This document shows, in pieces, positions 9,917-62,960 of a stretch of DNA of 64,000 nt. Within the stretch, counting starts at the first letter, position 1. Each line of letters opens with the position of its first letter. The notes beneath the pieces were generated by a model, which had not been told where the DNA came from, did no database searches, and was given only the letters and a program-made list of their open reading frames with translations. Location of the stretch: IMG/VR virus record IMGVR_UViG_3300042520_000860, positions 1 to 64,000 of that record; one strand, 5' to 3'. The position numbers were made by a program, and so were the translations under genes. Origin of the DNA: a virus.

Positions 9917-9945
9917 ACTTTTGTTTTGTTCTATTGGTTGTGGGG

Positions 9946-10581: not shown

Positions 10582-10654
10582 GGTTGGTCTGGGGTTGCAT
10601 TAGTAGTGTTCTATCAAATACTTATTTGCTTTGCAAACATAAAGTTTAGAAAGA

Positions 10655-10711
10655 GAGGGCGGCTGGCGACCATGTTCGGAAGAAACCAATACTTCCTAGC
10701 CAACCGCCCTC
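10655..10711 (-). terminator. long bulged hairpin (terminator or processing site)
   Basis: GAGGGCGGCTGGC/GCCAACCGCCCTC arms with inner GGAAG/CTTCC stem, just past the ATPase stop. Confidence 0.45.
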
Positions 10712-10718
10712 AAATCTT

Positions 10719-12362
10719 TCACATGCCAATCCTCCTTCGACGGGTTTGGGATTGTCGTGTTGCGGGAACTTTCAATAAGGTCTTGTCAGATTTTGACTCA
10801 GGCGTCGAAGCGAGGCGCGCGTTGTTTTCAGCCCACGAGCGCATTGCCTCAAAGTCATCCGCAAAGGCCACGCTGATTGGTTTCATGTTCTTGAGCTGAT
10901 CGGCAATCGCTTGACCAGTCACCTTGTCGCCTGAGTTGAACGACTCGATCACGGTTTCTTTTACTGCGGCCTCGATCTCTGCGCTCACGTAACCCTCCGA
11001 GTATTTGATCGCCTCAGCAAGGTCTTCAATCGTATCAGGATCTTGCTTGCGAGACTTGAGGTGAATACGCAAGATTTCTTCCCGCTCGACTGAGTTAGGT
11101 GGAAGTACAGCGAACACTTCATCCAACCTACCCTTGCGCAGTAGCTCGGAGGGGAGTCCTGCAACGCGGTTGGCAGTGAAGAGCCAAAAGATCGGCGCGG
11201 GGCTTTCCTGCATGAAGGTCAGGATACTGCCTAGCACTCGCGTGGAGGTGCCTGAGTCATTTGTAGCGCCGCTGCTTAGGCCCGCCTTGTCGATCTCATC
11301 GATAAAGGCCACGCAAGGGGCCATCGCTTCGAGTTGCTTGAGGGCGGCACGGACGCGGCCTTCAGATTGACCTACTAAAGAACCAAAGACACGAGAGACA
11401 TCAAATCGGATCAGAGGTTGGCCTAAAGTTGCGGCAATCGCTTTCGCACTGATTGACTTCCCTGTTCCGGGCGGGCCGATCAACGCGATGCCTTTCGGTT
11501 TATCCGCGCCGAAGTCCTCAGCATCCTTACTGAAGCACGCCTTGCGGATCGCCATCCATGCTTTGAGTTGATCCAGACCGCCGACGTCCTCAATTCTGCC
11601 TGCTTTCATCAGTTCCAAGACTTCCGAGCGTTTGACGACATCGGTCTTGGTGGAAAGGACGATGCGGTTGAAATCAGTGAACGGAACTTCGGGGAATGAA
11701 TCCAAGTTGCGAACGATTGCTTGAGCGAAGGCCGACTCCGCTTCCAAGCGGGTCATGCCAGACGCACTTGATACGAGCGCTTCTTTTTCGGAAGCGGTGA
11801 ACACCTCCATAGGCTCGTGATTGGTTGGGAACGCGCCTTCGATCACCTCATCCAAGATTGACGCGATCTCATCACGGTCTGGCAATTCGTAGTCTATGAC
11901 GGGGATGTCATGTTGAAGTTCGGCTGGAAGGACAAACGACTCAGGCGTGACAATCACCAGCCGCTTTTCGGAGGTGGCAAATTGATAAGCGTACTGCCGC
12001 AGCATTGCGACCATCACGGGGTCAGGCTTTTCACCAAGGAACGGATGCAAGCCGTCCATGGCGTAAATTCCATCGGGCCACGCATTTGACCCGTCGCCGT
12101 CAAGGTCTCCGATCTTTTTCAGCGCCGCTTGCGGATTGATTGTTTTATCACGCGCCGAGGGCTGGTCGCTAGACAGCTCATTGGAGTATTCATGCCAGCC
12201 GCCGACTACATTCCACATCTTGTAAGGGAGCGACGCTTGAGTGGAAGACTCTTTAAGGGCGGATAAAACCCTGAACGGTTCGCGAGCACGGGTTAGGATC
12301 ACACCCGTGCCAGCGGCACTAAGGATTTTGATTTCTTTTAAGTAGTTTAGTTTTGCTTTCAT
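10719..12362 (-). CDS. Ycf46-like AAA+ ATPase
   Basis: DVGGLDQLK, Walker A GPPGTGKS, Walker B FIDEIDK, TAN...LPSELLRKGRLDE; degenerate first AAA domain; ATG 12362 lies after the promoter. Confidence 0.85.
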   Translation of the reverse strand: MKAKLNYLKEIKILSAAGTGVILTRAREPFRVLSALKESSTQASLPYKMWNVVGGWHEYSNELSSDQPSARDKTINPQAALKKIGDLDGDGSNAWPDGIYAMDGLHPFLGEKPDPVMVAMLRQYAYQFATSEKRLVIVTPESFVLPAELQHDIPVIDYELPDRDEIASILDEVIEGAFPTNHEPMEVFTASEKEALVSSASGMTRLEAESAFAQAIVRNLDSFPEVPFTDFNRIVLSTKTDVVKRSEVLELMKAGRIEDVGGLDQLKAWMAIRKACFSKDAEDFGADKPKGIALIGPPGTGKSISAKAIAATLGQPLIRFDVSRVFGSLVGQSEGRVRAALKQLEAMAPCVAFIDEIDKAGLSSGATNDSGTSTRVLGSILTFMQESPAPIFWLFTANRVAGLPSELLRKGRLDEVFAVLPPNSVEREEILRIHLKSRKQDPDTIEDLAEAIKYSEGYVSAEIEAAVKETVIESFNSGDKVTGQAIADQLKNMKPISVAFADDFEAMRSWAENNARLASTPESKSDKTLLKVPATRQSQTRRRRIGM

Positions 12363-46715: not shown

Positions 46716-48035
46716 TCATAGCGACTGCGGCGACTCAGCGGTTCCATTCATGCCAGCAACCGCCAGCGGAACCAGCCCACTCTCGATAAAGAATTGATCC
46801 AAGTAAGGGTCGTCAATCCGTTGCAATCCAGCTTTCTCACGAAGTTCGTTCGGGGTCATTGCGCCGATCTTAACCATCGGGCCGTAATCCTTGAGCGTCT
46901 GCTCAACGTCGATCAGGCCAGACATGCTGTAATCGTAGCACAGGTTTTCTCCGTAGGCTTTAGCAATTCCGCCAGCCATGTTGATGCGGCCAATCAATAA
47001 GTCAAGCAACGGCACGCACTCGTACTTGCGGAAGTTGATGTCATCCTGCCTAGCGGTTGCGTAGTTTGCCGCGCCAGCAATACCAGCAACAGAAAGCGGA
47101 ACGCCGTGGATGAGGAAGATTTGTTCAACCGTCCATTTCTCACGCTCAATCGCTTGCATCTCCTGCATCGTCAGGCCGAGCTTATGGTATGACCAGTCTC
47201 CGTTCAGGAAAGCAGTCTTACCTGCGTTGCGACGACCACCGTATTCCGAGTTGAACTTTTGTCGAAACGCTTTCCATGCGCCTTCATCTTCAACAACGTC
47301 TTTCTTAGTCAGAATACCAGACGGCATTGCGCCATTCTCAAGGAACTTTTCATCCAGAGCATTGCGGTTGATGTAGGCCGAGAGCGTGTCCTGCGATGGT
47401 TCGACGTCGCCAAGTCCCATGATGAGATTGTTAGGATGCGGGCGTCGGAACTGGAGGATTTCCTCAGGCTTTAACGCAATCGTTTGGCCGTTGATCTTGT
47501 ACTTCCAACCCTTGATTTTGATCTTTGGGTCAGGGTCTGCCTCGATGTACTGAGGAAGTAAGGGGAAGATTGCTTTTGGTTGGCCAGCGCCATTAGGCTC
47601 GTCTTTCAGCCAATAGGCAGTACCCGTCAACTTCATGTGGAATGTCCACATGTAAATCAATTCTTCCCATGAGTCGAATGGGTTAGGCGTTGACAGGAAC
47701 ATTGCCAACGGGTGCGTATCAGGCAGGAGCTGGTCTTCGGACTCACCCACCCCAAGTTGAATTGCTTGGACTTTTGCGGAGACGAGGACGTTGGCGACCA
47801 AGTGACAAGCGCGGAACGAAGCCCAGACCTTTTTGCTACCGACGTCGAGGAAGGATTGGAAGTCGGCTAACTTGGAAATAGTGACGCCTACGCGTTGTTC
47901 AATGAAGTTGCGCTCCTTTACATTCGGGATGCGAGAGAGGACAGTTTTCTCGGCAACGCTGAACAACTCTTTTCGATCATTGTAGCTGAGGTCTGAGAGT
48001 TTGGCTGGCGTATTCTTAAAGATCCAGAATGGCAT
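46716..48035 (-). CDS. portal protein, HK97 family
   Basis: PNPF, LTGTAY, FLENGAMPSGIL, NAGKT, MTPNELR. Confidence 0.92.
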   Translation of the reverse strand: MPFWIFKNTPAKLSDLSYNDRKELFSVAEKTVLSRIPNVKERNFIEQRVGVTISKLADFQSFLDVGSKKVWASFRACHLVANVLVSAKVQAIQLGVGESEDQLLPDTHPLAMFLSTPNPFDSWEELIYMWTFHMKLTGTAYWLKDEPNGAGQPKAIFPLLPQYIEADPDPKIKIKGWKYKINGQTIALKPEEILQFRRPHPNNLIMGLGDVEPSQDTLSAYINRNALDEKFLENGAMPSGILTKKDVVEDEGAWKAFRQKFNSEYGGRRNAGKTAFLNGDWSYHKLGLTMQEMQAIEREKWTVEQIFLIHGVPLSVAGIAGAANYATARQDDINFRKYECVPLLDLLIGRINMAGGIAKAYGENLCYDYSMSGLIDVEQTLKDYGPMVKIGAMTPNELREKAGLQRIDDPYLDQFFIESGLVPLAVAGMNGTAESPQSL

Positions 48036-48849: not shown

Positions 48850-49107
48850 TTACTTGACGATTGACGCCCGCTCGCGCTTTCGGTGAGTCGCAGCGATCAG
48901 GAACTCAATCGCGGCGTCCGTATTGTCAATCTTGGTGATTTTCAATACATTGCCGATTCTCTTAAACGCGAACAGCGCCTCAGCGTTGGGTTGCTGGATT
49001 GCGGCGAAAAGTTGCCCAAGGTTGAGTTTGACGCCGTCGATTTCAACTACCGAGTTTAGCGGGATGTGGACGGCAACCCCAGTGGGGATCTTGACGGTTC
49101 GGGCCAT
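48850..49107 (-). CDS. hypothetical protein (start MARTVK)
   Basis: ORF downstream of GroES. Confidence 0.5.
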   Translation of the reverse strand: MARTVKIPTGVAVHIPLNSVVEIDGVKLNLGQLFAAIQQPNAEALFAFKRIGNVLKITKIDNTDAAIEFLIAATHRKRERASIVK

Positions 49108-49111
49108 CCGC

Positions 49112-49378
49112 TTACTCTGCCTCGCGTTTCGCCAACAGCTTGCTTTCTTGAATGAGGATGTAGTCGATTCCCTGCAAGACAACATGAGTCCCAAGGTGGG
49201 CTGGGACATACACGCTATCACCATCGGAAACCATTTCGCAGGTATGGCCAGCCTTTTGCACGGTTCCCCATGTTTCGGTGGTTTGAGAGATTTGCGGCAG
49301 GGCAATGCCTCCAGCGGTCTCAGTTTTGCGGTCGTCCATGCAGACGAGGACTAGGTCGTTAATAGGGGTCAGGGTCAT
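49112..49378 (-). CDS. groES: co-chaperonin GroES (Cpn10)
   Basis: LTPINDLVLV...TETAGGIALP...GTVQKAG...GDSV...YILIQESKLLA. Confidence 0.85.
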   Translation of the reverse strand: MTLTPINDLVLVCMDDRKTETAGGIALPQISQTTETWGTVQKAGHTCEMVSDGDSVYVPAHLGTHVVLQGIDYILIQESKLLAKREAE

Positions 49379-49430
49379 AGGTGGGCAGAACTTAGCGTCT
49401 GAAGGAAATTTCGCAATCACTTTTTGCAAC

Positions 49431-50918
49431 TTATGCAATTAGTAGTTTCGGAAGAGGCGTCGTCAACTCCTCATGCGCAATCGAAACGGCATCGACTTGG
49501 TCGTCATGTATCCCTTCTGGGAATTGCTCAAGCTCTTCGACGAACTCTTTTGTCCATAGGCCGCGAACGATAGTCACGCGTCCGGCCTCGATCAAATTTA
49601 ACCACGGCTGCGCACGCAAGAGTTTTCCGCCTCTAGGTGGGTTGCGTTTGTGGACTGCGATGTTGCCGAGCAAGGATGCTTTGACGTCTTGGTAAATGGC
49701 ATCGAAACCTCCCACGCCTTCGACCGCAATCCGCAAAACGTTCATCTTCTCACGGTCACGGAGCGCCTGTTCAATCATCTGGCCGCGAACTTTCGCCCAC
49801 GCCCACTGTCGTTTGAATATGTCCACGATGTAAAACTGGTCGCCATCCCACCCGCATAGCGCGCCAGCGGTAAAGTCTGCGGATTGCTTTTCAGTAATGG
49901 CCAAGTCCCATCCTCGCGTCAGGGTTAAGCCATCTGGTAATTCTGATCGCTCAATGTACCGCAACTTCGATAAATCCGCCTGTCCCGATGATGCGGTTCG
50001 AGGCGTACCCTCGTACTGACTCGACCACTCATAGGCGGGCAGCGCCGCCTTCAATCCAAGCAAGAAGGACAACGGTCGCTCTTGAGGGAATAGCGGGTCT
50101 CCCTCGCCGCGCATCAATGGATCATTTGAATCTGCGATGGCTTTAAGGTTGGTCACTTCAAACGCAGACGAGCCTTGGCCCTCAGCCTTGAGTTGCGCAA
50201 CGTAGTCTTCACTTGTCAAGTGACCGATTAAGTCATTTGGATGCCAGCGCGTTCCGATAATGAACACCTTAGCGTTTCGGCTAAGTCGAGTTGCGCAGTC
50301 GGCGAAGTACCATTCGATCACTCGACGACGTTGCAAAGATGACTCGGCCTCTGCACGTCCCGCGTGCGCATCGTCAATAATAAGCCAGTCAACTTTGCGT
50401 CCAGTCAACTTAGACCCAGCCGATTTTGCAATGATCGACGACCCATTAGAAAAGTAAACACTATCCGCGCGGTCGCGTCCAAACACTGGGGCAATGTTCG
50501 GAAAGATCCGCGCATAGGCCGGTAAACCCATAATGTTTTTAATCTCACGAATGAAATCAGTTAGCAGCGAATGAGAGAACCCGGTAATAGCGACGCTAAT
50601 TCCGGGCTTGCTTCCGACCAACCATGCCACGGCACGAACTGCAAGCAGGCGACTCTTACCATGCTGAGGAGGAACGCTCACTGCTTGGCGTGGTGCACAC
50701 TGGCCTGTTATTACGCCTTGAACTTTAGTGGCAAGAAACTGGTGAAGCTCGCCGATCACATAGCTGGCTGAGTCATTCTGAGGAAACATTACGTGCAGAA
50801 ACGAGAGAAAATCCTCTTGAGCAACTGCTGTCAGACGTTTGTACAAGACCAAGAACGCCGCATCATCGAGATCAGGCGCAGTCTCAGTCTCATCAAGCGA
50901 TGGTTTTTTTCTTGGCAT
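49431..50918 (-). CDS. terL: terminase large subunit
   Basis: PPQHGKS, LIIDD, GTRWH, GWDLA, FPEGIHDDQVDA. Confidence 0.93.
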   Translation of the reverse strand: MPRKKPSLDETETAPDLDDAAFLVLYKRLTAVAQEDFLSFLHVMFPQNDSASYVIGELHQFLATKVQGVITGQCAPRQAVSVPPQHGKSRLLAVRAVAWLVGSKPGISVAITGFSHSLLTDFIREIKNIMGLPAYARIFPNIAPVFGRDRADSVYFSNGSSIIAKSAGSKLTGRKVDWLIIDDAHAGRAEAESSLQRRRVIEWYFADCATRLSRNAKVFIIGTRWHPNDLIGHLTSEDYVAQLKAEGQGSSAFEVTNLKAIADSNDPLMRGEGDPLFPQERPLSFLLGLKAALPAYEWSSQYEGTPRTASSGQADLSKLRYIERSELPDGLTLTRGWDLAITEKQSADFTAGALCGWDGDQFYIVDIFKRQWAWAKVRGQMIEQALRDREKMNVLRIAVEGVGGFDAIYQDVKASLLGNIAVHKRNPPRGGKLLRAQPWLNLIEAGRVTIVRGLWTKEFVEELEQFPEGIHDDQVDAVSIAHEELTTPLPKLLIA

Positions 50919-50924
50919 TCAAGA

Positions 50925-51479
50925 TTACTTCAGATCGACGTCCTTGTTATTTGCCGCTATTCGTGAGGCGTCCGTAAAGGCCGATGGGAACGCGCGCATG
51001 GCCGCTTGCAGGGCTTTGCCCAAGGCATTGCCACTCATCTCTTCTCTAGCGTCACCTACGATTGAGACCTCACCTTTAAGTGGCTGGTCGGCAGGGGTGG
51101 TCAATTCAACCCGCGTCGAATAACCACGACCGCGTCCTTTAGTAGATAAGTAAAAGGTAATCGCCCGCGTATCGTTGTTCTTGACGTTCTCCAGCAACTT
51201 GCGTTCGACGAAATCAAGTTGCTTGTGGTCAATTTCTTTTACCTTGCGCTGGAAGTCTAGGTCTTGCTCCATCCATTCGTAGATAGTGCGGCGAGGAATA
51301 CCTACCTGCTGAGCAGCATAGGAAATGATTCCGAGGTGCTCATCTAGCATGACAAGGAACTTCTGCTTATCACTGGCCTTCTTTTTCTCACGCTGCTCAG
51401 CCAATGAAACTGTATTCTTTTCTTCATTGATAATTAAACGTCTGCGCCGAGGCGCTGCTTTTTGTTTCGGTTCTTTCAT
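50925..51479 (-). CDS. terS: terminase small subunit (HTH)
   Basis: GIISYAAQQVGIPRRTIYEW, AITFYLSTKGRGRGY; upstream of terL. Confidence 0.75.
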   Translation of the reverse strand: MKEPKQKAAPRRRRLIINEEKNTVSLAEQREKKKASDKQKFLVMLDEHLGIISYAAQQVGIPRRTIYEWMEQDLDFQRKVKEIDHKQLDFVERKLLENVKNNDTRAITFYLSTKGRGRGYSTRVELTTPADQPLKGEVSIVGDAREEMSGNALGKALQAAMRAFPSAFTDASRIAANNKDVDLK

Positions 51480-51492
51480 AAGCTATTTAGAT

Positions 51493-52620
51493 TTAGTGCG
51501 ACGGAATAAGGCGGCTTGCTTCAGCAAGGGCCATCCCGACAACCTGATCCATGTTGTAGTAACGATAAGTCGCAAGTCTGCCAATAAAAGAGACATTCTT
51601 TTCAGAATCGGAAAGCTCCTTGTATTTTTTGTAAATGACCGAGGACTCAACTGACGGTACGGGATAGTACGCCTCTTTTCCTAAGGAAAAATCATCGGGA
51701 TATTCACGAACCACCGTCGTATTCTCACATGTTTGACCCGTTATGTGCTTTACCTCAACAGTTCTGGTAAAGGGAATTGACTCACTAGGGTAATTAACTT
51801 GTACGGCTGGTTGATAAAAACTTCCCCCAAGCTCCTTTTCAGAAAAGGATTCATGCTCAAATCGTAACGAGCGGTAAGGCAACGCACCGAACCTATGGTC
51901 ATAAAAAGAATCAATCGGGCCTGTGTACACCATGTGATTAAACGTTACGTTTTTAACGGTATCGAGATAATCCTCATTTAGGACTACGGTAAGTAGACTA
52001 CCGCATGACGAAATCATCTTTTTGAACATAGCCGTGTACCCTTCCTTCGGCATTGCTTGAAAACTCTCTTGAAGGTAGCGGTCATCGCGGTTCATCCTAA
52101 TTGGGATACGCGCACAAACGCTGGCGTCGAGGTCTTTTGGATGACGCTTCCACTGTTTCATCGTGTAGCCCTTGAAGAATTTTTCATAAAGTTCCCATCC
52201 AACCTGAGAAACCACGACCTCCTCAGAATTTGCAGGGTTTGCAATTTCAATGCGGTGTGTATCGAGCCACTCACTCATCTCCTCACTGGTCGACGGCCTT
52301 CCAATAAACTGCTCGAATGTGTTTAAGTTTATGGGAAAGTTCCAGTAGTCCTCATCTATTTTAGATAGGATTTTGTACTCAACTGGTAGCCATTCAGTAA
52401 AAAGCGAAAGGTAGTCTTTAATCCTAGCAGAGTTGGTTCTAAAGTAATGAGGGCCGTACTTGTGGATTAGCACACCTGCCCCATCGAGCATGTCATAACA
52501 GTTCCCGCCTATGTGCTCGCGGCGGTCAACCACTAGGCACTTGCGCCCAGCGCTGCACGCCCTCTCAGCAAAGGTAAGGCCCGCGATACCCGCGCCGACA
52601 ATCAAGTAATCGTAGTGCAT
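51493..52620 (-). CDS. glf: UDP-galactopyranose mutase
   Basis: IVGAGIAG, HIGGNCYD, HKYGPH, GYTMKQW, LPYRSLRF, YYP, GRLATYRYYNMDQ. Confidence 0.95.
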   Translation of the reverse strand: MHYDYLIVGAGIAGLTFAERACSAGRKCLVVDRREHIGGNCYDMLDGAGVLIHKYGPHYFRTNSARIKDYLSLFTEWLPVEYKILSKIDEDYWNFPINLNTFEQFIGRPSTSEEMSEWLDTHRIEIANPANSEEVVVSQVGWELYEKFFKGYTMKQWKRHPKDLDASVCARIPIRMNRDDRYLQESFQAMPKEGYTAMFKKMISSCGSLLTVVLNEDYLDTVKNVTFNHMVYTGPIDSFYDHRFGALPYRSLRFEHESFSEKELGGSFYQPAVQVNYPSESIPFTRTVEVKHITGQTCENTTVVREYPDDFSLGKEAYYPVPSVESSVIYKKYKELSDSEKNVSFIGRLATYRYYNMDQVVGMALAEASRLIPSH

Positions 52621-52627
52621 GGCTTAT

Positions 52628-53548
52628 TTACGGCTTACGCCACTGTTCAGAAATAAGTCTAGGCACCGCGTTATTCCACATTGTGTTATGGTGAAAGCGG
52701 CGATTAGTTGTCCATAGCTCTGAAACGGTTGTGGATGATGGGTGCTGTATGACCGTGTAGAATGATTTTAGATACGTACCGTTATCCATGTACACCTCTG
52801 TCATGCCACCCGCCGCAGCTTGAGTCGGGACTTGTGTAAGCTGTGCTTGTGTAAGTGTAAAATAAAGATGGCCGCGTGATCCGTTAAGCACTGCCGCGCT
52901 TACATCCTCATTCATGCGACCGCAGAACGTAAAAGGTCGATCTGTCCGACATACCCACGAGTTCATTATCTTGCGAAGTAATCGCCAACCGTTCTTGAAG
53001 TAAGAGTTATCATGCCCGCCGATGTAGTCCCCGCCTTGCGCAATGGCAACGGCTGACGTGGGCGTAGCGTCCATAAATTCCACGAGCGCCGCAAATAGTC
53101 CATCTAACGAAAGTAGTTTCTTTTGCGAGATAAACTCTCCGTTAGCATTTGCACGGTAAGAGAACGTCGTGTAGTCGTCGTCTAGTTGGATAAAATGAGT
53201 AATGCCAAGCTCGGTGGCGATCTCAAAGCAAGCATTCCTAGCATAGACTACAGCCCTACGATCAGTAAAGTTGTCACAGTTAGGATAAGTCTCGGAAATC
53301 TTTTTCTTATCAAAGATCACAACTTCATCCCCGAATTTTTCCTTGTACGCATTTCGTTTCTTGTCCTCGTTATCCACGACAAGAATAATACGCCCCTTGT
53401 ACCCTGCCGTCTTTATGGCATCATACGTTCTTACATTGTCTGGTCTTCCATGCGTAAGAATAAACGCGGCAAAGGTTTCCGGCAAGGTTTGCCAGTTTGC
53501 TTTCGGCGGGCCTGCATTTTGTGTTAGCTTGCTCATCGTAATGGTCAA
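52628..53548 (-). CDS. GT-A glycosyltransferase (GREB1-like/TET-associated type)
   Basis: FILTHGRP, YARNACF, IQLDDD, GRMNEDV, GGMTEVY; start may be 53536. Confidence 0.75.
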   Translation of the reverse strand: MTITMSKLTQNAGPPKANWQTLPETFAAFILTHGRPDNVRTYDAIKTAGYKGRIILVVDNEDKKRNAYKEKFGDEVVIFDKKKISETYPNCDNFTDRRAVVYARNACFEIATELGITHFIQLDDDYTTFSYRANANGEFISQKKLLSLDGLFAALVEFMDATPTSAVAIAQGGDYIGGHDNSYFKNGWRLLRKIMNSWVCRTDRPFTFCGRMNEDVSAAVLNGSRGHLYFTLTQAQLTQVPTQAAAGGMTEVYMDNGTYLKSFYTVIQHPSSTTVSELWTTNRRFHHNTMWNNAVPRLISEQWRKP

Positions 53549-54486
53549 TCGTTAGTGTCCTCAGTGGAAAGCTCATCCGAATGGTCTTGGGCATACAAGG
53601 CTTTGACCCGTTCAGTCAACCTAACATAACCAAGCTCAACGGCCCTATTAAAGTCCACTAGAACCAAGGCACTGTTTTCCATTAAACGCTGAACCTCTTT
53701 CGGCGCATGCGCATAGTACTCGGCGACTTTACCATAATCGAACACGATGTGCCGACTAGCTGCGAATTTAAGAAAATCGGCAACTTCTTGATCGTCTATT
53801 TGAGCACTTTCGATTTCCTCAATAAACTGATTGTACTTTTTAAGCCCTGCAAGCTCAGCCACTTTAGGTTTGTCACCAGTTGGAGTGTAGATAGGGACGA
53901 CAACCTTTCCAGTGTACGCTGATTCAGTATTCTCCGAGGACTCATCCGAATCCCCTTGCATACCAAGTCCATCCTCATCCCCCATAGGAGGAATAGCGCC
54001 ATCAAAGCCAGTGATTTCAAGATCAAACGGAAGCTCCTCTGTTGAAAGCTCCGTAAGTATTTCATTTAAGGCAGGGAAATCCCACTCAGCGCTCCAACGA
54101 TTCGCCGCAATCATCGCCGCCTTTTCTTTTTGATCGTTCCACTTAACTTCACGATAGGCAAAGCGCGTACCCGTGCTGAGGACTACGTAACCGTAGGCAA
54201 GAGTCCCGGCCTCATCCGCACTCGGCAGTATTAACTCAACTGACTTAGTAGCCGCGCTATCTTCCTTGAACTCTGCCAACCTTTTATGACCACCGACTAA
54301 ATGTCCAGAGGTCGTATTGAACACGATACCCGAAAGGTCGCCGAACTCTTTTAGCGATTTTCTGAATGCCTCTCGCTGGTCATCATCTCGCCATTCTTTA
54401 CGAGGGTTTTTAGGGTTAGACGCTAGGGTATCTAAGCCTAGCGAGTCTACGGCATTTACAGCTTTTTCTTTTTTATTGTTTGTCAT
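53545..54486 (-). CDS. ParB-like N-terminal domain fused to a conserved GT-partner domain
   Basis: NPKNPR...SLKEFG...LVGGHKRL; C-terminal YT.KV..PIY...AASRHIVFDY..VAEYYAHA. Confidence 0.7.
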   Translation of the reverse strand: MTNNKKEKAVNAVDSLGLDTLASNPKNPRKEWRDDDQREAFRKSLKEFGDLSGIVFNTTSGHLVGGHKRLAEFKEDSAATKSVELILPSADEAGTLAYGYVVLSTGTRFAYREVKWNDQKEKAAMIAANRWSAEWDFPALNEILTELSTEELPFDLEITGFDGAIPPMGDEDGLGMQGDSDESSENTESAYTGKVVVPIYTPTGDKPKVAELAGLKKYNQFIEEIESAQIDDQEVADFLKFAASRHIVFDYGKVAEYYAHAPKEVQRLMENSALVLVDFNRAVELGYVRLTERVKALYAQDHSDELSTEDTND

Positions 54487-54509
54487 GTGATTAAGTATTT
54501 TGTCGGAGG

Positions 54510-55322
54510 CTATTTTCGAGGAATTTCAATAGCCTTGCCATTATTAAGAATAGGGCGTTGCTTGAACTGAGACCAGCTAGCCCTTCCGCTGGCTTTACCA
54601 AAGTGATTACACGCGACTAGACTTATGTCGTCTGGCCATAATTTTTTGAGATTACGTAGATGATTAAGTCTTCCAGTAGCGCCACCCCTTACATCCTGCA
54701 TACCACCCGCTATGGCATCCGAACTAGCTGAATGTTGAAGATATTGAAAACAAAGTAGCGTTACCCATCCTTGTTTAAGTACTTGAAGAGAATAGTCAGT
54801 GTCTCCGGGAATAACGCGCCACCATGCGTCAACATCTGTGCGAAATAGCCCACAGGTGTAAATCAGCTGGTTCACTAGGAATGGGCGCGGCTCATTAAAC
54901 ACCGCCCCTTGTGCTTTTGGACATGCCGCCGCTACGTTCTTAAACTGTGTAACAAACTCTTGAACGCCCAGTAAGGCATCGAGAGCCTCACACCGTTCGG
55001 CCTTAAATTTTCCATCAATGATTCCAACTCTTCGGCGAAATGAAATAAGATCGTCATCTATTTGCCAGTGCCACTTTGCCCCCATAGTACGGGCATGTCG
55101 CTTACAGAAATTACGAGAAAAGATAATCCCTTGATTATCCTTAGGCAATACGAGAATCCTATCTTCGCCATATTGGTTTGCGTAAGCCTCGCTTTCTTGC
55201 GGCTCCACCACTAAACGAAATGGGATATTGTTCCTCAGAAGTAGCTTGGGAGTAGTAGCGGAGTTTGCCCTTCCCTTTGAGGGCACATAGATAGGGAATA
55301 GATTCTCTAGTTTCGCGCTCAT
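54510..55322 (-). CDS. GT-A glycosyltransferase (GREB1-like type)
   Basis: PIYVPSKGRA, VVEPQE...Y, SRNF, WQIDDD, DTDYSLQVL. Confidence 0.75.
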   Translation of the reverse strand: MSAKLENLFPIYVPSKGRANSATTPKLLLRNNIPFRLVVEPQESEAYANQYGEDRILVLPKDNQGIIFSRNFCKRHARTMGAKWHWQIDDDLISFRRRVGIIDGKFKAERCEALDALLGVQEFVTQFKNVAAACPKAQGAVFNEPRPFLVNQLIYTCGLFRTDVDAWWRVIPGDTDYSLQVLKQGWVTLLCFQYLQHSASSDAIAGGMQDVRGGATGRLNHLRNLKKLWPDDISLVACNHFGKASGRASWSQFKQRPILNNGKAIEIPRK

Positions 55323-55334
55323 GATTATCGGCGA

Positions 55335-56279
55335 TTAGTGACTCTCCCGCAGCGAGGGAACGCTCAGCACTGCCTCCATTGCTTGTGCCCAGCCTGTGTG
55401 TGGGCTAGTCATCCATGGCTCTCTTATTGCAAGAATGTCACGGCGTATCTGCATGGCCACACTGCTAGTGTTCACCGATCCATATGGCGAGATACGAATC
55501 ATAAACGGCTGCTCGAAACGCCTCACCAGATCGCTATGATACTCTAGCGCAGTGCTCCACTCTGCCGCGTGAGGCTTCAGACCGGCAGGAGTAGGTGCTG
55601 ACCTAGATTGAATGATCTGTTTAGCCGTCAACTCTGGATCAATAAACGGCGACTGTATCTTTGTTAAGCACTCTACAAGAGCGTCTTCACTTGAAGTCAT
55701 TAGCTGGTCGAAGTCAAAGACCTCGCAGCCAATTTGAGTGAACGCCCAATCCATCCTCCACCTCATAAGCTGCCAACCCGCCACGGCCTGTCTCCGAAGG
55801 TCAGTAGCCGTTGAGCGTAGAAACTCCTTCAATTCACAATCAACCAACCCATGCGACAGGATTGAATGAAAGCAGGCCACGTACCAGCCGACTACCCTAA
55901 CAGTAAGGGGCGGAAAGGTGTAGGAGATGTTTCTAGTTACGCCAAACGTGTGGAAACGTTTTGAGAATGCCTCCGCACAGAATGAGAAAAATACTTCTTT
56001 GGTAAAGTTGTAGGGCTCCTTATTCCACGACGAATCCAAGATTTTATCCACCGTGTCCGAATCAAGTTCTTTCGGGATATTACCTACGCACGGGTAAAGC
56101 TCACAACCTAAGTATGGCGAAAGCGCCTCATAGTACTTTTGATTTAGTACAGGGTTAAAGAACTCTTTAGGGTACATCGAAATGGACGGATTTGCCTTAG
56201 CGATGCAGTTTGAAAACCAAGTTGAGCCGGAGTTTGGCTGACTCACGAGCAGTAAATTACACTCAGTTTTCGTTTTCAT
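55335..56279 (-). CDS. sulfotransferase-like P-loop protein
   Basis: LLVSQPNSGSTWF 5'-PSB-like loop, KEFFNP, FTKEV. Confidence 0.55.
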   Translation of the reverse strand: MKTKTECNLLLVSQPNSGSTWFSNCIAKANPSISMYPKEFFNPVLNQKYYEALSPYLGCELYPCVGNIPKELDSDTVDKILDSSWNKEPYNFTKEVFFSFCAEAFSKRFHTFGVTRNISYTFPPLTVRVVGWYVACFHSILSHGLVDCELKEFLRSTATDLRRQAVAGWQLMRWRMDWAFTQIGCEVFDFDQLMTSSEDALVECLTKIQSPFIDPELTAKQIIQSRSAPTPAGLKPHAAEWSTALEYHSDLVRRFEQPFMIRISPYGSVNTSSVAMQIRRDILAIREPWMTSPHTGWAQAMEAVLSVPSLRESH

Positions 56280-56410
56280 GGTTTTGACTTGGTGAAGTTT
56301 TCGATCAGCGCAAACGAGCGCGTGCCACTTGGAATGTTCCAAGCGTAAGCGGACGGGTCAAACAAGTAGCGGTTGCCCTTGGTAAATGCTGGTTTGAGTT
56401 CTGGGGTCAC
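56276..56410 (-). CDS. 44 aa hypothetical protein (GTG start)
   Basis: Open frame ending in an ATGA overlap with the sulfotransferase start. Confidence 0.3.
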   Translation of the reverse strand: MTPELKPAFTKGNRYLFDPSAYAWNIPSGTRSFALIENFTKSKP

Positions 56411-56636
56411 AGCGGGTGAGTCACCAGACAATCTTAATCCTCAAATGCTGTCAAGCTATTGGTGTGCAACTTGTGCGAAATAGTTTGTGACAAATCGCAC
56501 AGCTTTTCTGTCACAAAAGAAATTGCAACGTTTGCAATTTTGAAAAGTTGTTACTGGCAAGGACTCCTACGAGTAACAAACCTTTCGCCAACTCATTTGA
56601 CTGGACGCGGTTATCCTATGGCTTATCATGCGCCCG

Positions 56637-56936
56637 ATGCTCAAGAGCGTTTCCATCGCTGGCCACAAGATACCGATACGCGTGAAGAATCTTGAGGATT
56701 GCTACGGGCAGTATTCTCCCGATGCGAAGGTGATCGAACTCGACAGGAAGACGCTCAAGGATAGTAAGCTCCTTCGCGAAACTCTGCGGCATGAGATGGT
56801 CGAAGCCGCATTGTATCTCAGCGGCGTTGCCTACAGCGAAAACTACGAGCAAGAGCCAATCGTCCGTGCACTCGATGAGTTATTCTGGCCAGCTTGGGAC
56901 TCGGCCAGCAAACGGCTGGACAAGCTCACGCAATGA
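56637..56936 (+). CDS. ImmA/IrrE-like zincin-fold protein (HExxE variant)
   Basis: YGQY...IEL...ETLRHEMVEA...EQE; the only credible + strand gene. Confidence 0.65.
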   Translation: MLKSVSIAGHKIPIRVKNLEDCYGQYSPDAKVIELDRKTLKDSKLLRETLRHEMVEAALYLSGVAYSENYEQEPIVRALDELFWPAWDSASKRLDKLTQ

Positions 56937-56959
56937 TTTGCAAGGTTTGCAAACTAATT

Positions 56960-57244
56960 TCAGCAGACTGGCCATGCTCGTAGCTCGTCATAAGTGAAGT
57001 CGTCATTGTCGTGGTCCGCCGACTCAAAGGGATTGTCGTCGTTCGGCCACGTGGGCTTATTCCAGCTCAGGCCGTTCTTTGCCAGTTGCCGCAATTCCTC
57101 TACCGTAGAGTTTTCCGCCGCCGCAATTCTCGACAAGGCCCTTTCCATCATGAATAGCTTTCCGCGCAGCGCGGATTCACGCTCGCCGCTCATTGCCAGC
57201 AGCCGCGCTTGCTCAAGGCATTCGTCGCATTGGCGCTTACTCAT
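56960..57244 (-). CDS. hypothetical protein
   Basis: EQARLLAMSGERE motif shared with 59611..59841. Confidence 0.55.
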   Translation of the reverse strand: MSKRQCDECLEQARLLAMSGERESALRGKLFMMERALSRIAAAENSTVEELRQLAKNGLSWNKPTWPNDDNPFESADHDNDDFTYDELRAWPVC

Positions 57245-60409: not shown

Positions 60410-61291
60410 TTAGAGGTCTTCTGGGTGGCGAAAGCCAAGAAACGACGGGATGCGCGGCTTGTCCTTCATACCGATTGACTGATAGCGAAACTTGACGAGC
60501 TTTCCAAGATAGTTTTTGCGGTTGTCCCATATCTCTTTCCTCAGCGCGGCATCAAAGCCAGTGCCTAGGTTGAAGTCGCCGAAGCGTTCATGGCGAAGTA
60601 CTAACGCGCCAAGGGTTCCAAGCGGCGTGAGGTTTTCTTTGTGCGACGAGCGGCGCGTATGACCAAGCTCATTGGTGGTGGCCTCGTTATCATTGCGATG
60701 CTGTTCCTCGAAGTCGATGATCTCGGCCTCGTCGTCCTCGAAAGGTTTGAGTTTAATGAGGTGGCCTTCCTTGAAGGTTGACCTACCGAACTTGTAGACT
60801 CCTCGCGGGGCGCGGATCATTGCGCCCTCGTATCCACGCGTCAAGCATGAGTCCAGATAGTCGTCCAGCTCGATGCGGTCGCGAATGAACTTGGTTTCAA
60901 CCGCCTTCAGGAACGGGTGCTTTTTTGCAAGGTTTGCAATCCTGAAAATGTACTGATTGACCCGTTGCTCATACGGTAGCGCGGGACTGGTGAAGGTATC
61001 AAAGACATGGAAGGCGAAGTCGGGCTTGCCGCCGCGCGTCATAATCCCAGATGTGACATCTTGGAATGATGCGCCATCGCCCACCATCAACTCGCCATCA
61101 AAGCCATCGAACTCAGGCCGTGTCAGCGTCGCGCTGATGTGGCTGTTTGGAATGGGTTTGAGCGAGCGCGTCTTTGGCATGCCGTTAATCACAAGGCAAC
61201 GGATTCCGTCCAGCTTCGGTGAGGCAATCAGCGGAAAGCGCAGCGTGTGCGCCTCAGCATCAAAGGATGCCGCGAGCATGGGCTTAATCAT
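60410..61291 (-). CDS. lig: ATP-dependent DNA ligase
   Basis: KPMLA, SPKLDGIR, FDGEL, FHVFD, YEGAMIR, IKLK, GTGF, PRIP. Confidence 0.92.
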   Translation of the reverse strand: MIKPMLAASFDAEAHTLRFPLIASPKLDGIRCLVINGMPKTRSLKPIPNSHISATLTRPEFDGFDGELMVGDGASFQDVTSGIMTRGGKPDFAFHVFDTFTSPALPYEQRVNQYIFRIANLAKKHPFLKAVETKFIRDRIELDDYLDSCLTRGYEGAMIRAPRGVYKFGRSTFKEGHLIKLKPFEDDEAEIIDFEEQHRNDNEATTNELGHTRRSSHKENLTPLGTLGALVLRHERFGDFNLGTGFDAALRKEIWDNRKNYLGKLVKFRYQSIGMKDKPRIPSFLGFRHPEDL

Positions 61292-61854
61292 TGCGCACCT
61301 CCTTTCTGCTTGAGCGACAAGCGACCAAGCCCAGCGGTGAACCATTTAGGCGGGGAGCAAAACTTCCACTTAGCGAAACTACTTTTATCGTAGATGTAGT
61401 ACAGGCGATACTTTTCAACTGCCGTAAGGCCATCAAACCCTTGATGCTTGCGGCATTGCTGCTGGTCTGAGATGGCGATAGCAAAGTCGGTCAGCCCACC
61501 AAGAGGAACGAGCGAGTCATTGTAGCGCAAGTCGCACCATCGAATAAATTTCTCAGAAAAGTGAGACCCGCCATAGCGGCGCTTTTTTTCATGGCACATA
61601 GACAGCGCGTGAAGGATCAGCCAATCCATGTTTTCAGAAGAGGCCATAACCCACCGCGTGCAAGGGTGGTTTGAGTACCCATGCGAGCGTGGGTTGCCGT
61701 TACTATTGCGGGGACAATCATTCGCGGCAAGGCGTTCCAAGGTAAAGCAGTTAGCCAGCATTTGAGCAGACTCAACAATCATCTTGATGACATGGGCATC
61801 ACATAAGTCCCTCGCCGCTTTTTCTGGATCTTGATCTAAGCAGAATATGTTCAT
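61288..61854 (-). CDS. pyrimidine dimer DNA glycosylase/endonuclease V family protein
   Basis: MNIFCLD..P..AA...CDAHVIKMIVESAQML, NHPCTRW, YRLYY. Confidence 0.8.
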   Translation of the reverse strand: MNIFCLDQDPEKAARDLCDAHVIKMIVESAQMLANCFTLERLAANDCPRNSNGNPRSHGYSNHPCTRWVMASSENMDWLILHALSMCHEKKRRYGGSHFSEKFIRWCDLRYNDSLVPLGGLTDFAIAISDQQQCRKHQGFDGLTAVEKYRLYYIYDKSSFAKWKFCSPPKWFTAGLGRLSLKQKGGAQ

Positions 61855-62090: not shown

Positions 62091-62960
62091 TTAGGCATCA
62101 GCGGATTCGTTATTGAACTGCACGCCCATTATGAAGTCAGCGGCGCGTTGTGCTTGCGCGGCGGCTTGCACCACCAGCTTAGAATCATCCTTGAGCGCTT
62201 TGAGCCATGAGGCAATGTACGAGGCACTTGTTTTCAAAGTGTTTTCAATGCCCGCTGAGGCGCTCAAGAAGGCCGCGCCCATCTCGGCGACTAACTCTTC
62301 CTTGGCGTAGCACTCATCACCGAAGGCCGCCAGCTCCGTAACGCCAGCGCGGTTTAAGCGCGACTCATGACCCGTGGCGTGGGTTAGCTCATGGAAAAGG
62401 ACTGAGTAGTAATTGCCCTCGGCATCGAATGACTCACGCGGCGGCATCGTCACGCTATCCTCGCAGGGGCGATAAAAAGCACGCCCACCTCCATGATTGA
62501 TGCGGGGGGCCTTTGGCATCTCGGCCACGATCTTTTCCGCCGCCTCAATCGGGTTGAACTCTGGCAGGTTGGCGGGTGCTTCATCGACCGCAAGACCGTC
62601 GCATTGCTCGACATTGAAGACGGTGAAGTATCTCAGGAAAGGAACTTTCTTCGGCGTGCCATCGGCTTTCTTTTCGGTCTTGGAGTCAACCCAGTTCCAG
62701 AAGACAATCGGCGTTCCCTTTTCGCCCTTGCGCACTGAGCCGCCAAGGGAAGTAGCTTGCTTGAAGGTCAGCCAGTAGGGCGAGGCATACGGGGCGAATC
62801 CAAGGAGGAACCAGTTGACGCCGCGATAAGGCTTGCGGCTGATAAAGTTAGCAGGGTTTCCGCCGTTCTCGGCTTTCCACGGCTTGCGCCATGGCACTGT
62901 TCCAGCTTCGAGTTGCGAAATGATTTGCTCGGTGACGATTTCGTAGATGTCTTTTTTCAT
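62091..62960 (-). CDS. ardC: ArdC-like antirestriction ssDNA-binding protein with metallopeptidase domain
   Basis: PWRKPW, YRGVN, WLTFKQA, VRKGEKG, VFNVEQ, FHELTHATGH, YAKEELVAE. Confidence 0.9.
   Translation of the reverse strand: MKKDIYEIVTEQIISQLEAGTVPWRKPWKAENGGNPANFISRKPYRGVNWFLLGFAPYASPYWLTFKQATSLGGSVRKGEKGTPIVFWNWVDSKTEKKADGTPKKVPFLRYFTVFNVEQCDGLAVDEAPANLPEFNPIEAAEKIVAEMPKAPRINHGGGRAFYRPCEDSVTMPPRESFDAEGNYYSVLFHELTHATGHESRLNRAGVTELAAFGDECYAKEELVAEMGAAFLSASAGIENTLKTSASYIASWLKALKDDSKLVVQAAAQAQRAADFIMGVQFNNESADA

Follow-up and report, generated by a model that had tools for sequence, protein, structure and literature searches.

The locus studied here raises the question of what a phage would glycosylate with a set of sugar enzymes encoded directly upstream of its terminase genes. 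The window, a stretch of 64,000 nucleotides, covers the first part of the linear 78,298-bp virus record IMGVR_UViG_3300042520_000860 and holds a five-gene cassette on the minus strand (51493-56279). An original prediction had described this cassette as a string of sulfotransferase-like protein, GT-A glycosyltransferase (GT), ParB-like fusion, second GT-A enzyme and UDP-galactopyranose mutase, and had suggested that galactofuranose (Galf), possibly sulfated, is attached to the phage DNA or virion. Our analysis confirmed the gene string, its positions and its strand (Table 1), and supported its reading as a functional cassette that recurs beside terminase genes, while the overall interpretation was partly supported. 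We propose, with a probability of about 0.45, that this packaging-linked, ParB-assisted cassette equips phage DNA with a glycan that contains Galf and is probably sulfated, by an acceptor chemistry that is not recognised.

Organization of the cassette and its linkage to packaging genes

In the direction of transcription, the gene order is ORF1, GT1, the ParB-like gene, GT2 and Glf, followed by terS and terL. Neighbours within the cassette are between a 4-nt overlap and a 23-nt gap apart and terS starts 13 nt past Glf, the seven genes from ORF1 to terL being near-contiguous in one orientation. The non-coding gap 5' of the cassette, which is presumed to be the control region for the cassette and packaging gene string, contains a single copy of the exact palindrome TTGCAA-N3-TTGCAA (56523-56537); no minus-strand sigma-70 consensus promoter was called in this gap.

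Table 1 Features of the cassette and its surroundings in the window
Feature	Position	Strand	Length	Assignment
ORF1	55335..56279	-	314 aa (from ATG)	Divergent sulfotransferase-fold protein (predicted); Pfam/PHROG blank
GT1	54510..55322	-	270 aa	TAGT GT-A; PF20691 3.5e-31 (109 bits), phrog_842 5.8e-32
ParB-like	53545..54486	-	313 aa	ParB-CTPase fold; phrog_620 3.9e-31
GT2	52628..53548	-	306 aa (from TTG)	ParB-linked TAGT GT-A; PF20691 1.5e-35, phrog_842 1.2e-64
Glf	51493..52620	-	375 aa	UDP-galactopyranose mutase; PF03275 5.4e-70, NAD_binding_8
terS	50925..51479	-		Small terminase subunit (weak: phrog_4044 1.5e-6, phrog_309 1.6e-5, HTH matches)
terL	49431..50918	-		Large terminase subunit; Terminase_6N/6C, phrog_38 1e-77
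Portal	46716..48035			Portal
Non-coding gap	56280..56627	.	348 bp	5' of cassette; faces divergent 102-aa ORF (56628-56936, +)

A terL-like ORF also follows in at least 25 of 80 IMG/VR loci with a GT2 homologue (median distance 553 bp), a lower bound since six terL queries were used, and in one locus (L104) the cassette sits between terL and the portal gene.

A galactopyranose mutase and two TAGT-type glycosyltransferases

The mutase proved to be intact, as predicted. It passed the NCBIfam equivalog model TIGR00031 (337.8 bits, cutoff 303.75) and aligned over its full length with 13 solved UDP-galactopyranose mutase (UGM) sequences, best with Deinococcus radiodurans UGM 3hdq (2.7e-117), with conserved GxGxxG and C-terminal RLATYRYYNMDQ blocks. 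By sequence, Glf is thus a genuine UDP-galactopyranose mutase that would supply UDP-galactofuranose.

Both GTs are GT-A enzymes, again as predicted, and fall into the TAGT family; they share only 22% identity with each other. The isolates nearest to GT1 are TAGTs of T4-like and jumbo phages; genes annotated as TAGT in Aeromonas phages 65 and Aeh1, Vibrio phage Kuja and Tenacibaculum phage PTm1 are ~28% identical to it. GT2, whose homologues begin to align at about residue 20, is 37-45% identical to genes of Lactobacillus phage c5, E. coli phage vB_EcoS-683R6, Nocardia phage NTR1 and halovirus HHTV-2, and has more than 559 relatives in IMG/VR. The DDD motif is aligned in GT1 and invariant in GT2 (residues 123-125). 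The archetype of PF20691 is the beta-glucosyl-HMC-alpha-glucosyltransferase of T2/T6, which shares Pfam family and phrog_842 with GT1 and GT2 and adds a second sugar to a DNA-borne sugar, a plausible role for GT1. Indeed, the substrate of this characterised TAGT is a DNA-linked sugar, and 288 of 753 GT-encoding phage genomes carry "solitary" TAGTs of undefined function (PMC13216743). We consider GT1 a candidate second-sugar transferase, possibly for Galf, and GT2 a candidate priming transferase.

Could these enzymes, together with the sulfotransferase-like protein, instead act on the surface of the infected cell, changing its O-antigen, capsule or teichoic acid for superinfection exclusion or receptor masking? 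Bacterial Glf is best known from the synthesis of O-antigen, capsule and cell-wall galactan, sulfated polysaccharides exist, and prophage GT operons drive O-antigen diversity. Such a role is nevertheless very improbable, because no membrane protein, flippase, polymerase or Gtr-type component accompanies the cassette, all five products are predicted to be soluble with no TM segments, and both GTs are basic (GT1 pI 9.6) and belong by Pfam to TAGT rather than to polysaccharide GT families. Moreover, the cassette forms one co-oriented string with the terminase, one partner has a ParB fold, and the phage is probably virulent (lytic), since the record contains no integrase or resolvase.

The ParB-like protein and GT2 form a conserved pair

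The "ParB-like fusion" of the original prediction is indeed ParB-like, but "fusion" is less apt than a division into three parts: an N-domain of the ParB-CTPase fold, which carries a GHxR P-motif and an insert of 25-30 aa; a linker that is acidic and disordered (~160-205); and a helical C-domain that is conserved (~205-306). The protein (pI 4.6) matched Spo0J (PDB 4umk, 1.8e-4), and its AF2 model (pLDDT 73) gave Foldseek probabilities of 1.0 for 6sdk ParB-CDP, pNOB8 ParB-N, Noc and KorB, with sulfiredoxin and serine kinase as lower-ranked matches. Its N-domain aligned (hhalign probability 98%) with gp1 of Mycobacterium phage Cooper, encoded ahead of a TET/JBP gene, whereas the C-domains were not alignable.

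Of 80 IMG/VR loci with a GT2 homologue, 76 have a ParB-like ORF immediately 5' of it; among the exceptions, three are truncated at the end of a contig and one (L085) is a long stop-to-stop frame, perhaps a fusion. ORFs directly upstream of GT2 homologues are 28-37% identical to the ParB-like protein. The same gene order is common to phage c5, the E. coli phage, NTR1 and HHTV-2, where, as in the window, the pair lies 0-3 kb upstream of the terminase. It is also found in 1,580 of 5,426 complete E. coli genomes, in which the Rac-type prophage gene ynaK (a ParB/Srx N-terminal domain protein) adjoins a hypothetical GT that is 44% identical to GT2 and sits before the terminase; this pair lacks Glf, GT1 and a sulfotransferase-like gene, and we found no paper assigning it a function. 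These data show that ParB+GT2 is a near-obligate pair, in which the ParB-like gene is not incidental, and a conserved two-gene core in hundreds of phages and prophages, to which this phage has added GT1, a genuine Glf and a sulfotransferase-fold protein.

Phage ParB-like proteins are reported to activate 5mYOX enzymes on double-stranded DNA, and no domains are found alongside 5mYOX more often than GT, ParB and terminase (O'Toole et al., PNAS 2026, PMC13229309). As here, the ParB of these phage thymine dioxygenases is a ParB-CTPase-fold protein in which an N-terminal nucleotide-binding domain is combined with a C-terminal one and which lacks an obvious DNA-binding domain; it is encoded beside a DNA-modifying enzyme, often near GT and terminase genes. 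The partner there is a dioxygenase, whereas it is a GT here, and the record lacks 5mYOX; by analogy, the ParB-like protein may activate its partner.

ORF1 resembles sulfotransferases and travels with furanose-forming mutases

ORF1, which may alternatively start at a TTG at 56342, had no Pfam match even at E 10 and none in PHROG. The predicted label "sulfotransferase-like" appears valid at the level of fold only. In a wide structure search (VIA) with its AF2 model (pLDDT 57.7, pTM 0.60), the top 19 chains were all sulfotransferases, including TPST2 (3ap3_A, Z 6.4), and 24 of the 30 nearest ESM Atlas clusters were Sulfotransfer_1/3 (score 0.95). The profile of the ORF1 family (270 representatives at 50% identity) gave weak matches to the PDB, 23 of 27 being sulfotransferases aligned on the PSB loop, and 3 of 59 family members matched Sulfotransfer_3. 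The weak points of this assignment are the low pLDDT, Z scores of at most 6.4, sub-threshold sequence matches and a PSB-like loop (S-G-S-T-W) that lacks the usual catalytic Lys/Arg. In addition, ORF1 carries a C-terminal extension of ~50-60 aa compared with its relatives.

A furanose-forming mutase directly precedes the ORF1 relative in 8 of 9 testable loci, being Glf in six (L008, L009, L011, L014, L015, L103) and an RGP-type mutase in L013 and L104. Five of these eight loci also encode a TAGT-like GT (L013, L014, L015, L103, L104) and four a ParB-like ORF (all of these except L013); the three remaining loci are too short to reveal their flanks. Together with the recurrence of ParB-GT2, this pairing places the grouping of the cassette genes far beyond chance. 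One ORF1 relative is followed by an APS-kinase-like gene with a score under curated cutoffs, which, given its fusion to a nucleotidyltransferase-like domain, could serve another pathway.

Structurally, ORF1 matches protein-tyrosine sulfotransferases best, which would suit a protein target as well and counts against DNA. If the sulfated Galf glycan sat on a protein of the capsid, portal or tail, or on one associated with the terminase, and the ParB-like protein served as adaptor or acceptor, this would agree with these matches, with the embedding of the cassette in the packaging and structural module, with the lack of a DNA-handle enzyme in the record and its ParB-GT2 relatives, and with the occurrence of the ParB/Srx fold in enzymes whose substrates are proteins or small molecules, such as sulfiredoxin and serine kinase. 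Mycobacteriophages O-glycosylate capsid and tail-tube proteins. We still regard this explanation as unlikely, for known virion GTs are generally placed in the Glycos_transf_2 family, which neither GT1 nor GT2 matched in Pfam, whereas the characterised TAGT modifies a sugar linked to DNA. Moreover, the partner's N-domain is homologous to one partnering a DNA dioxygenase. ParB+GT2 is also kept across unrelated capsid and terminase types, from a Lactobacillus phage to a haloarchaeal virus, and therefore a universal substrate such as DNA fits better than one structural protein. DNA is therefore proposed as a likelier target than the virion.

Search for acceptor-making enzymes

We know of no GT acting on unmodified DNA, which weighs against DNA as the target. 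The absence of TET/JBP and hydroxymethylase genes, noted for the window in the original prediction, extends to the whole record, where Tet_JBP, 2OG-FeII_Oxy_2/3 and Thymidylat_synt yielded no candidates at E up to 1 and C5-MTase, N6/N4-MTase and TGT were absent. A search of 37 records with ParB-GT2, of which 15 have a completeness of at least 90%, found neither Tet_JBP nor Thymidylat_synt, and phages c5, NTR1 and HHTV-2 have no TET or ThyA-like genes. That a handle-making enzyme was undetectable in all these records argues against DNA as the target. Many complete phages carry ParB+GT2 without TET/ThyA-like genes, as do E. coli prophages, and this absence therefore probably does not stem from the limits of the window. 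As far as sequence profiles can tell, no recognisable phage enzyme makes a 5-hydroxymethyl or 5-hydroxy pyrimidine that could serve as the acceptor, and the first transfer would therefore occur either directly onto a canonical DNA group or via a handle made by an unrecognised enzyme.

It seems quite unlikely that an ordinary 5hmU/5hmC (or 5-hydroxy-C) sugar pathway operates here, with its handle enzyme encoded in an unsequenced part or being a 5mYOX too divergent for Tet_JBP. Phage-specific 5mYOX profiles did retrieve thousands of contigs with no Pfam TET/JBP annotation (PMC13229309), and in our control the Tet_JBP match of phage Cooper scored 28 bits, under the Pfam cutoff. The record is linear with a CheckV completeness of 89% and contains several unannotated ORFs of 200-340 aa. 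However, its PolA and primase genes lie at opposite ends and are adjacent in Aeromonas phage HJ05, so that the ends probably join and little is missing. The blank searches in the record and in its near-complete relatives also oppose such a pathway, as does the presence of the pair in complete genomes of E. coli, whose DNA is not known to contain hm-pyrimidines.

Proposed pathway and comparison with known systems

In the proposed modification of phage DNA, the cassette would probably be expressed late, jointly with the terminase. By analogy with the ParB proteins of phage thymine dioxygenases, the ParB-like protein may load its cognate GT2 onto double-stranded phage DNA after replication, or hold it there, and GT2 would attach the first sugar. 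Glf would convert host UDP-galactopyranose to UDP-galactofuranose, GT1 would add Galf (or the two GTs may act the other way round), and ORF1 would sulfate the furanose with host PAPS. The modified DNA would be packaged and then shielded from nucleases on entry into the next host.

Post-replicative phage hypermodification clusters consisting of C5-MT, 5mYOX/TET and GT (Burke et al. 2021, PMC8256090; Pyle et al. 2023 preprint, 10.1101/2023.12.21.572611) likewise have GT-A genes adjoining ParB-like and terminase genes, together with secondary GTs and sugar-modifying enzymes, and produce mono- to trisaccharides on DNA. In contrast to the present cassette, they need 5hmC or presumed 5hmU generated by a methyltransferase and a dioxygenase, both absent here, and the Pyle et al. 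preprint mentions neither a mutase nor a furanose. T-even phages synthesize 5hmC before replication by a ThyA-like hydroxymethylase and prime it with an alpha- or beta-GT, none of which is present here. In kinetoplastids, JGT, reportedly described by Iyer et al. in 2013 as a TAGT/GREB1-like GT-A enzyme, is said to glycosylate DNA post-replication to form base J; this system (JBP1/2 + JGT) needs thymine hydroxylation by JBP, which is absent from the record.

The original prediction knew of no Galf or sulfo-sugar on DNA. The second part still stands, as we found no description of phage DNA sulfation or of a sulfo-sugar on DNA in the searchable literature. The first part does not, because a phage Glf that supplies DNA glycosylation has already been proposed in Pootjesviridae and Galf on DNA is not unheard-of: Rhizobium phage RL38J1 contains glycosylated 5-hydroxycytosine and encodes Glf in its DNA-glycosylation cluster, with galactose base-proximal and a proposed route of UDP-Galf supply (NAR 2026, PMC13326640). 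Unlike the present phage, these large myoviruses obtain 5-hydroxy-dCMP from a ThyA-like synthase and use different GTs, with ParB and sulfotransferase not involved.

The cassette and its genome

The five ORFs at 51493-56279 form a real, recurrent cassette, which is a ParB-partnered, hydroxylase-free variant of the phage DNA sugar-hypermodification systems with a furanose and a probable sulfate, and with a putative target and acceptor chemistry. The ORFs are consecutive, with spacing between an overlap of 4 nt and a gap of 23 nt, and the string is continued, with gaps of 13 and 6 nt, by terS, terL and the gene for the portal protein. Cassette and terminase genes are co-oriented on the minus strand, as are nearly all genes of the record.

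Features of the cassette and of the surrounding record
Feature	Position	Strand	Remarks
Glf, UDP-galactopyranose mutase (UGM)	51493-52620	-	
GT2, TAGT-family glycosyltransferase	52628-53548	-	
ParB-like protein	53545-54486	-	
GT1, TAGT-family glycosyltransferase	54510-55322	-	
ORF1, divergent protein of probable sulfotransferase fold	55335-56279	-	
PolA, family A DNA polymerase, 912 aa	2755-5493	-	N-terminal uracil-DNA-glycosylase-superfamily domain (PF03167, 6e-6), then 3'-5' exonuclease and polymerase domains
ATP-dependent DNA ligase	60410-61345	-	
T4 endonuclease-V-type pyrimidine-dimer DNA glycosylase	61288-61854	-	PF03013, 1.5e-10
ArdC-like protein	62091-62960 (L001:91-960)	-	ArdcN (2.6e-37) and zincin-like metallopeptidase (3.9e-41)
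DnaB, primase, RecA, helicase, RuvC			Other genes of the record

Both glycosyltransferases matched the Pfam TAGT family (TET-associated glycosyltransferase, PF20691; cutoff 27.5), GT1 with 109.2 bits (3.5e-31) and GT2 with 123.5 bits (1.5e-35), and both matched phrog_842 (GT2 at 1.2e-64). The acidic DxD of GT-A enzymes is a DDD at residues 123-125 of GT2, which is invariant across five homologues and aligns with a DDD of GT1. The nearest relatives of GT1 are the TAGTs of T4-like phages, which carry ThyA-like hydroxymethylases. GT1 and GT2 are basic, and all five cassette proteins are soluble. Glf scored 337.8 bits over residues 3-372 against TIGR00031, the NCBI equivalog of UGM (cutoff 303.75), and matched PF03275 at 5.4e-70. 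It aligned end to end with solved UGMs, and the alignment with 3hdq (2.7e-117) keeps the FAD-binding GAGIAG (GxGxxG) and the C-terminal substrate-site block RLATYRYYNMDQVV. Since the five ORFs, their Pfam and PHROG matches and the equivalog score of Glf were found as described, the gene list and coordinates of the original prediction are correct.

The IMG/VR virus record, whose first 64 kb make up the window, is linear with a length of 78,298 bp, and its completeness was estimated by CheckV at 89%. PolA has its nearest relatives in phages of Rhizobium, Agrobacterium and Rhodobacter and in Aeromonas phage HJ05. Judged by PolA, HJ05 (79 kb) is the closest isolate, but it has only the replication module in common with this phage and lacks the cassette, and megablast of 49000-57000 against isolated phages returned no match. 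The PolA and primase genes are adjacent in HJ05 but lie at opposite ends of this record, and therefore it is probable that the ends join and that little is missing. Six-frame searches of the whole record found neither a tyrosine integrase (Phage_integrase) nor a serine recombinase (Resolvase), and the phage is probably virulent.

The ParB-like protein is paired with GT2

More than 559 relatives of GT2 were found in IMG/VR, and a homologue of the ParB-like protein is encoded immediately upstream of the GT2 relative in 76 of the 80 best of them. Three of the four exceptions end at a contig edge; the remaining one, L085, consists of a single long frame from stop to stop and may represent a fusion. 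For at least 25 of these 80 loci, a terL-like ORF lies within 3 kb downstream of the pair. The order ParB-GT before the terminase is also annotated in Lactobacillus phage c5, where the pair forms the first two genes after cos, in an E. coli lambdoid phage, in Nocardia phage NTR1 and in halovirus HHTV-2, with identities to the proteins of the window of 32-33% for ParB and 37-45% for GT. The E. coli version, consisting of ynaK and an adjacent "hypothetical protein", was found in 1,580 (about 29%) of 5,426 complete E. coli genomes. Genes for Glf, an RGP-type mutase, an ORF1-like or a GT1-like protein are absent from the 10 kb around all 80 best GT2 loci; the five-gene form is uncommon.

The ParB-like protein matched phrog_620 (3.9e-31) and PDB 4umk (1.8e-4). 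Its AF2 model (pLDDT 73) consists of a ParB-CTPase N-domain, an acidic disordered linker and a confident helical C-domain. Foldseek matched the model to 6sdk, 5k5d, 7ol9, 7bm8 and 8qa9 at probabilities of 0.97-1.0, with the N-domain matching ParB-CDP, Noc, KorB and pNOB8 ParB at probability 1.0. The P-motif (GxxR) is conserved, with G66 invariant and the consensus GHxR. This predicted three-part architecture appears to agree with that published for the phage ParB proteins which activate thymine dioxygenases on dsDNA (PMC13229309). According to the same paper, phage genes for 5mYOX (dioxygenases of the TET type) co-occur most often with GT, ParB and terminase domains (PMC13229309). However, whereas the partner of the dioxygenase-activating ParB proteins is a 5mYOX, the adjoining partner here is GT2, and no Tet_JBP match that could represent a cognate 5mYOX was found in the record. 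The ParB family described here and gp1 of Mycobacterium phage Cooper have homologous N-domains (hhalign probability 98%, E 1e-13), whereas the homology does not extend to their C-domains. We read this as a general design at the head of the packaging genes, which combines a ParB N-domain, a C-domain specific to the partner and an enzyme that modifies DNA; this enzyme may be a methylase, a dioxygenase or, here, a glycosyltransferase.

Genes 1-3 of Cooper (L099/L100) encode a ParB-like protein, a TET/JBP protein and an annotated adenylate kinase, and its ParB-TET/JBP genes lie at the start of the record, like the ParB-GT pair in phages c5 and NTR1. In the IMG/VR contig L060, a 65-kb genome with terminal repeats, a GT2-like gene, ParB and GT2 follow each other at 8705-10837, the same GT-ParB-GT order as in the window. 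L065, also an IMG/VR contig, has two successive pairs at 6272-10864, one of ParB and a protein like GT3 (the TAGT-like glycosyltransferase of the loci of ORF1 relatives) and one of ParB and GT2. Duplication and stacking of ParB-GT pairs seem to be common.

Gene context and fold of ORF1

The gene context of the ORF1 relatives is the strongest new evidence of this analysis. Twelve loci from metagenomes and two additional, new ones from IMG/VR encode these relatives, a third IMG/VR match being on the same contig as L015. In eight of the nine loci with readable upstream sequence, a gene for a furanose-forming nucleotide-sugar mutase lies directly in front of the ORF1-like gene. The mutase is Glf in L008, L009, L011, L014, L015 and L103, and a protein of Pfam RGP, to which the plant UDP-arabinopyranose mutases belong, in L013 and L104. 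Among the loci with long enough flanks, GT3 is present in L013, L014, L015, L103 and L104, and a ParB-like ORF with a weak but significant match is present in L014, L015, L103 and L104. GT3 has no BLAST-detectable relationship to GT1 or GT2. The gene order in L104, a 34-kb viral contig, is terL, ParB-like, GT3, RGP, ORF1-like, AAA_5, other genes and a lambda-type portal. Behind the ORF1-like gene of L015 lies a gene that combines an APS-kinase-like P-loop domain with an adenylyl/cytidylyltransferase-like domain, and its matches fall below the curated cutoffs. These shared neighbours indicate that a cassette of ParB-like protein, TAGT-like glycosyltransferase, furanose mutase and ORF1-like protein recurs in phage packaging modules, and the cluster in the window is one form of it.

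ORF1 itself is divergent. It had no Pfam match even at an E value of 10 and no PHROG match, single-sequence scans of IMG/VR and of genome contigs returned nothing, and only five relatives outside this record were found in an index of 5.8 billion proteins. A protein with 81% identity (P0005) is encoded on a 79,144-bp contig, and the family comprises 270 representatives at 50% identity. The AF2 model of ORF1 (pLDDT 57.7, pTM 0.60) had no significant Foldseek match in the PDB, and a PDB profile search with a six-sequence alignment gave no match. In a wide VIA search, which is independent of Foldseek and covered 48,161 PDB chains, the top 19 matches of the model were all sulfotransferases, with TPST2 as the best and Z scores of only 4.1-6.4. 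Of the 30 ESM Atlas clusters nearest to ORF1, 24 belong to the Sulfotransfer_1/3 families (score 0.95). A profile of 59 family members gave 27 sub-threshold PDB matches (E 0.03-2). Sulfotransferases make up 23 of these, with alignments on the 5'-phosphosulfate-binding (5'-PSB) loop for PAPS, and three of the 59 members matched Sulfotransfer_3 (best 8.9e-4) and one Sulfotransfer_1. The AF2 model, the ESM Atlas, the PDB profile and the Sulfotransfer_3 matches are four weak lines which agree, and we accept a sulfotransferase fold as probable for ORF1.

PAPS sulfotransferases are recognized by a 5'-PSB loop with a catalytic Lys/Arg, such as PKxGTTW or RSGTT. In the ORF1 family, a PSB-like loop S-G-S/T-x-W is conserved (S-G-S-T-W in ORF1; G18 and W21 nearly invariant), and the usual Lys/Arg position is Asn or Ser. 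Across the family, E39 is invariant and K38 and K94 are nearly invariant, and judging from this conservation Glu39, Lys38 and Lys94 could be candidates for the functions of the missing Lys/Arg. The odds that ORF1 has sulfotransferase activity are about even. ORF1 was also considered as a divergent TET/5mYOX supplying the hydroxyl for sugar attachment, which was rejected due to its model, an alpha/beta sulfotransferase-like fold rather than a jelly roll, and the lack of any Tet_JBP candidate.

No enzyme for making a sugar attachment site was detected

To our knowledge, all described DNA sugar modifications hang on a pyrimidine hydroxyl (the handle) that is first installed by another enzyme. Neither a TET/JBP protein nor a hydroxymethylase had been seen in the window, and this holds for the whole 78,298-bp record. 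Six-frame searches of the latter detected no Tet_JBP, 2OG-FeII_Oxy_2, 2OG-FeII_Oxy_3, Thymidylat_synt, C5 DNA methylase, N6/N4 methylase or TGT, whereas the same search recovered the TET/JBP gene of phage Cooper at 4e-8 as a positive control. The genomic association with a TET/JBP protein or another hydroxy(methyl)pyrimidine-making enzyme that characterizes TAGTs was thus not found here. Very probably, the phage has no recognizable enzyme for producing 5hmC, 5hmU or 5-hydroxy-C. Moreover, Tet_JBP and Thymidylat_synt were found in none of 37 records with a ParB-GT2 pair (each at least 20 kb; 15 at least 90% complete), and phages c5, NTR1, HHTV-2 and the E. coli phage also lack a Tet_JBP or ThyA-like gene. 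Therefore, the lack of an acceptor-making enzyme characterizes the ParB-GT2 family in general and is not peculiar to this window. An undetected hydroxylase that makes the handle is, against these searches, a doubtful explanation.

Proposed function of the cassette

We put the probability that the cassette acts on phage DNA at roughly 0.45. In such a pathway, the cassette genes would be expressed late, and the ParB-like protein would load GT2 onto replicated dsDNA, where GT2 may prime with the first sugar. Glf would provide UDP-Galf, from which GT1 would add Galf, and ORF1 may then sulfate the Galf using host PAPS. The sigma-70 promoter scan found none on the minus strand upstream of ORF1, and terminator-like sites were not above shuffled expectation, and thus "late operon" is read from gene order only. 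More specifically, the ParB-GT2 pair might glycosylate unmodified dsDNA directly, at an exocyclic amine, a ring atom or the backbone, without a hydroxymethyl handle, the sugar here being extended with Galf and sulfated; we offer this tentatively as a rather unlikely proposal. It is unlikely, too, that virion proteins are the glycosylated substrate. Modification of the host surface is very unlikely: no 19-residue window in any of the five proteins exceeds a KD value of 1.4, no Phage_integrase or Resolvase is encoded in the record, and the membrane transferase, flippase or polymerase and the temperate lifestyle that mark the prophage systems for O-antigen or surface-glycan conversion (Gtr, Wzy-dependent) were not found. 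The remaining probability belongs to other targets.

Known TAGTs include those of T2/T6, which add a second glucose to glucosyl-5hmC, and "solitary" TAGTs without a defined function were reported in 288 of 753 GT-encoding phage genomes (PMC13216743). The preprint of Pyle et al. describes GT-A enzymes encoded next to terminase and ParB-like genes, always framed by 5mYOX or ThyS. The ParB-GT pair is mentioned neither in the papers of Silas et al. nor in the ParB-CTPase survey. For Rhizobium phage RL38J1, a phage Glf was proposed as the source of UDP-Galf for a galactose-proximal glycan on 5-hydroxycytosine (PMC13326640). Hence, the earlier statement that no Galf modification of DNA had been described is out of date as far as a proposal is concerned, while its counterpart for sulfo-sugars stands, as our literature search found no paper connecting a sulfotransferase with phage DNA modification.

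Which of the restriction, CRISPR and glycosylase defences a phage can escape is decided by the hypermodifications of its DNA, and enzymes for epigenomics came from these. Hundreds of phages without a handle-making enzyme, among them prophages in about 29% of the complete genomes of E. coli, have a TAGT tied to a partner with the ParB fold. Either the DNA acceptor chemistry is new or the "DNA glucosyltransferase" family does something else, and both would correct current annotation. Glf and the sulfotransferase-fold protein, rarer parts that recur together in phage packaging modules, point to an anionic furanose glycan unreported on DNA. If direct glycosylation and sulfation are true, no DNA glycosyltransferase independent of a handle and no sulfated modification of DNA would have preceded them, and the same core would be at work in the ynaK pair of that 29% of E. 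coli genomes. The ynaK pair renders the core question testable in standard strains.

Other features of the genome

The ArdC-like gene suggests, from its domain matches, that the phage may also have a protein-based anti-restriction function. The ligase and pyrimidine-dimer glycosylase genes adjoin each other upstream of the small-gene block preceding the cassette. The G+C content of 50000-56000, the cassette region, is 0.474-0.486, slightly below that of the surrounding genome (about 0.50-0.53), which would fit a horizontal acquisition. Genome-wide, there are 27 copies of the 15-bp palindrome TTGCAA-N3-TTGCAA with at most one mismatch, 14 of them exact, compared with 0.47 expected from shuffles (e.g. 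at 8334, 12424, 17219, 23281, 30500, 34131, 38498, 42952, 46616, 48696, 56523, 56938, 59207 and 60925). Two exact copies flank a plus-strand ORF at 56628-56936, just upstream of the cassette.
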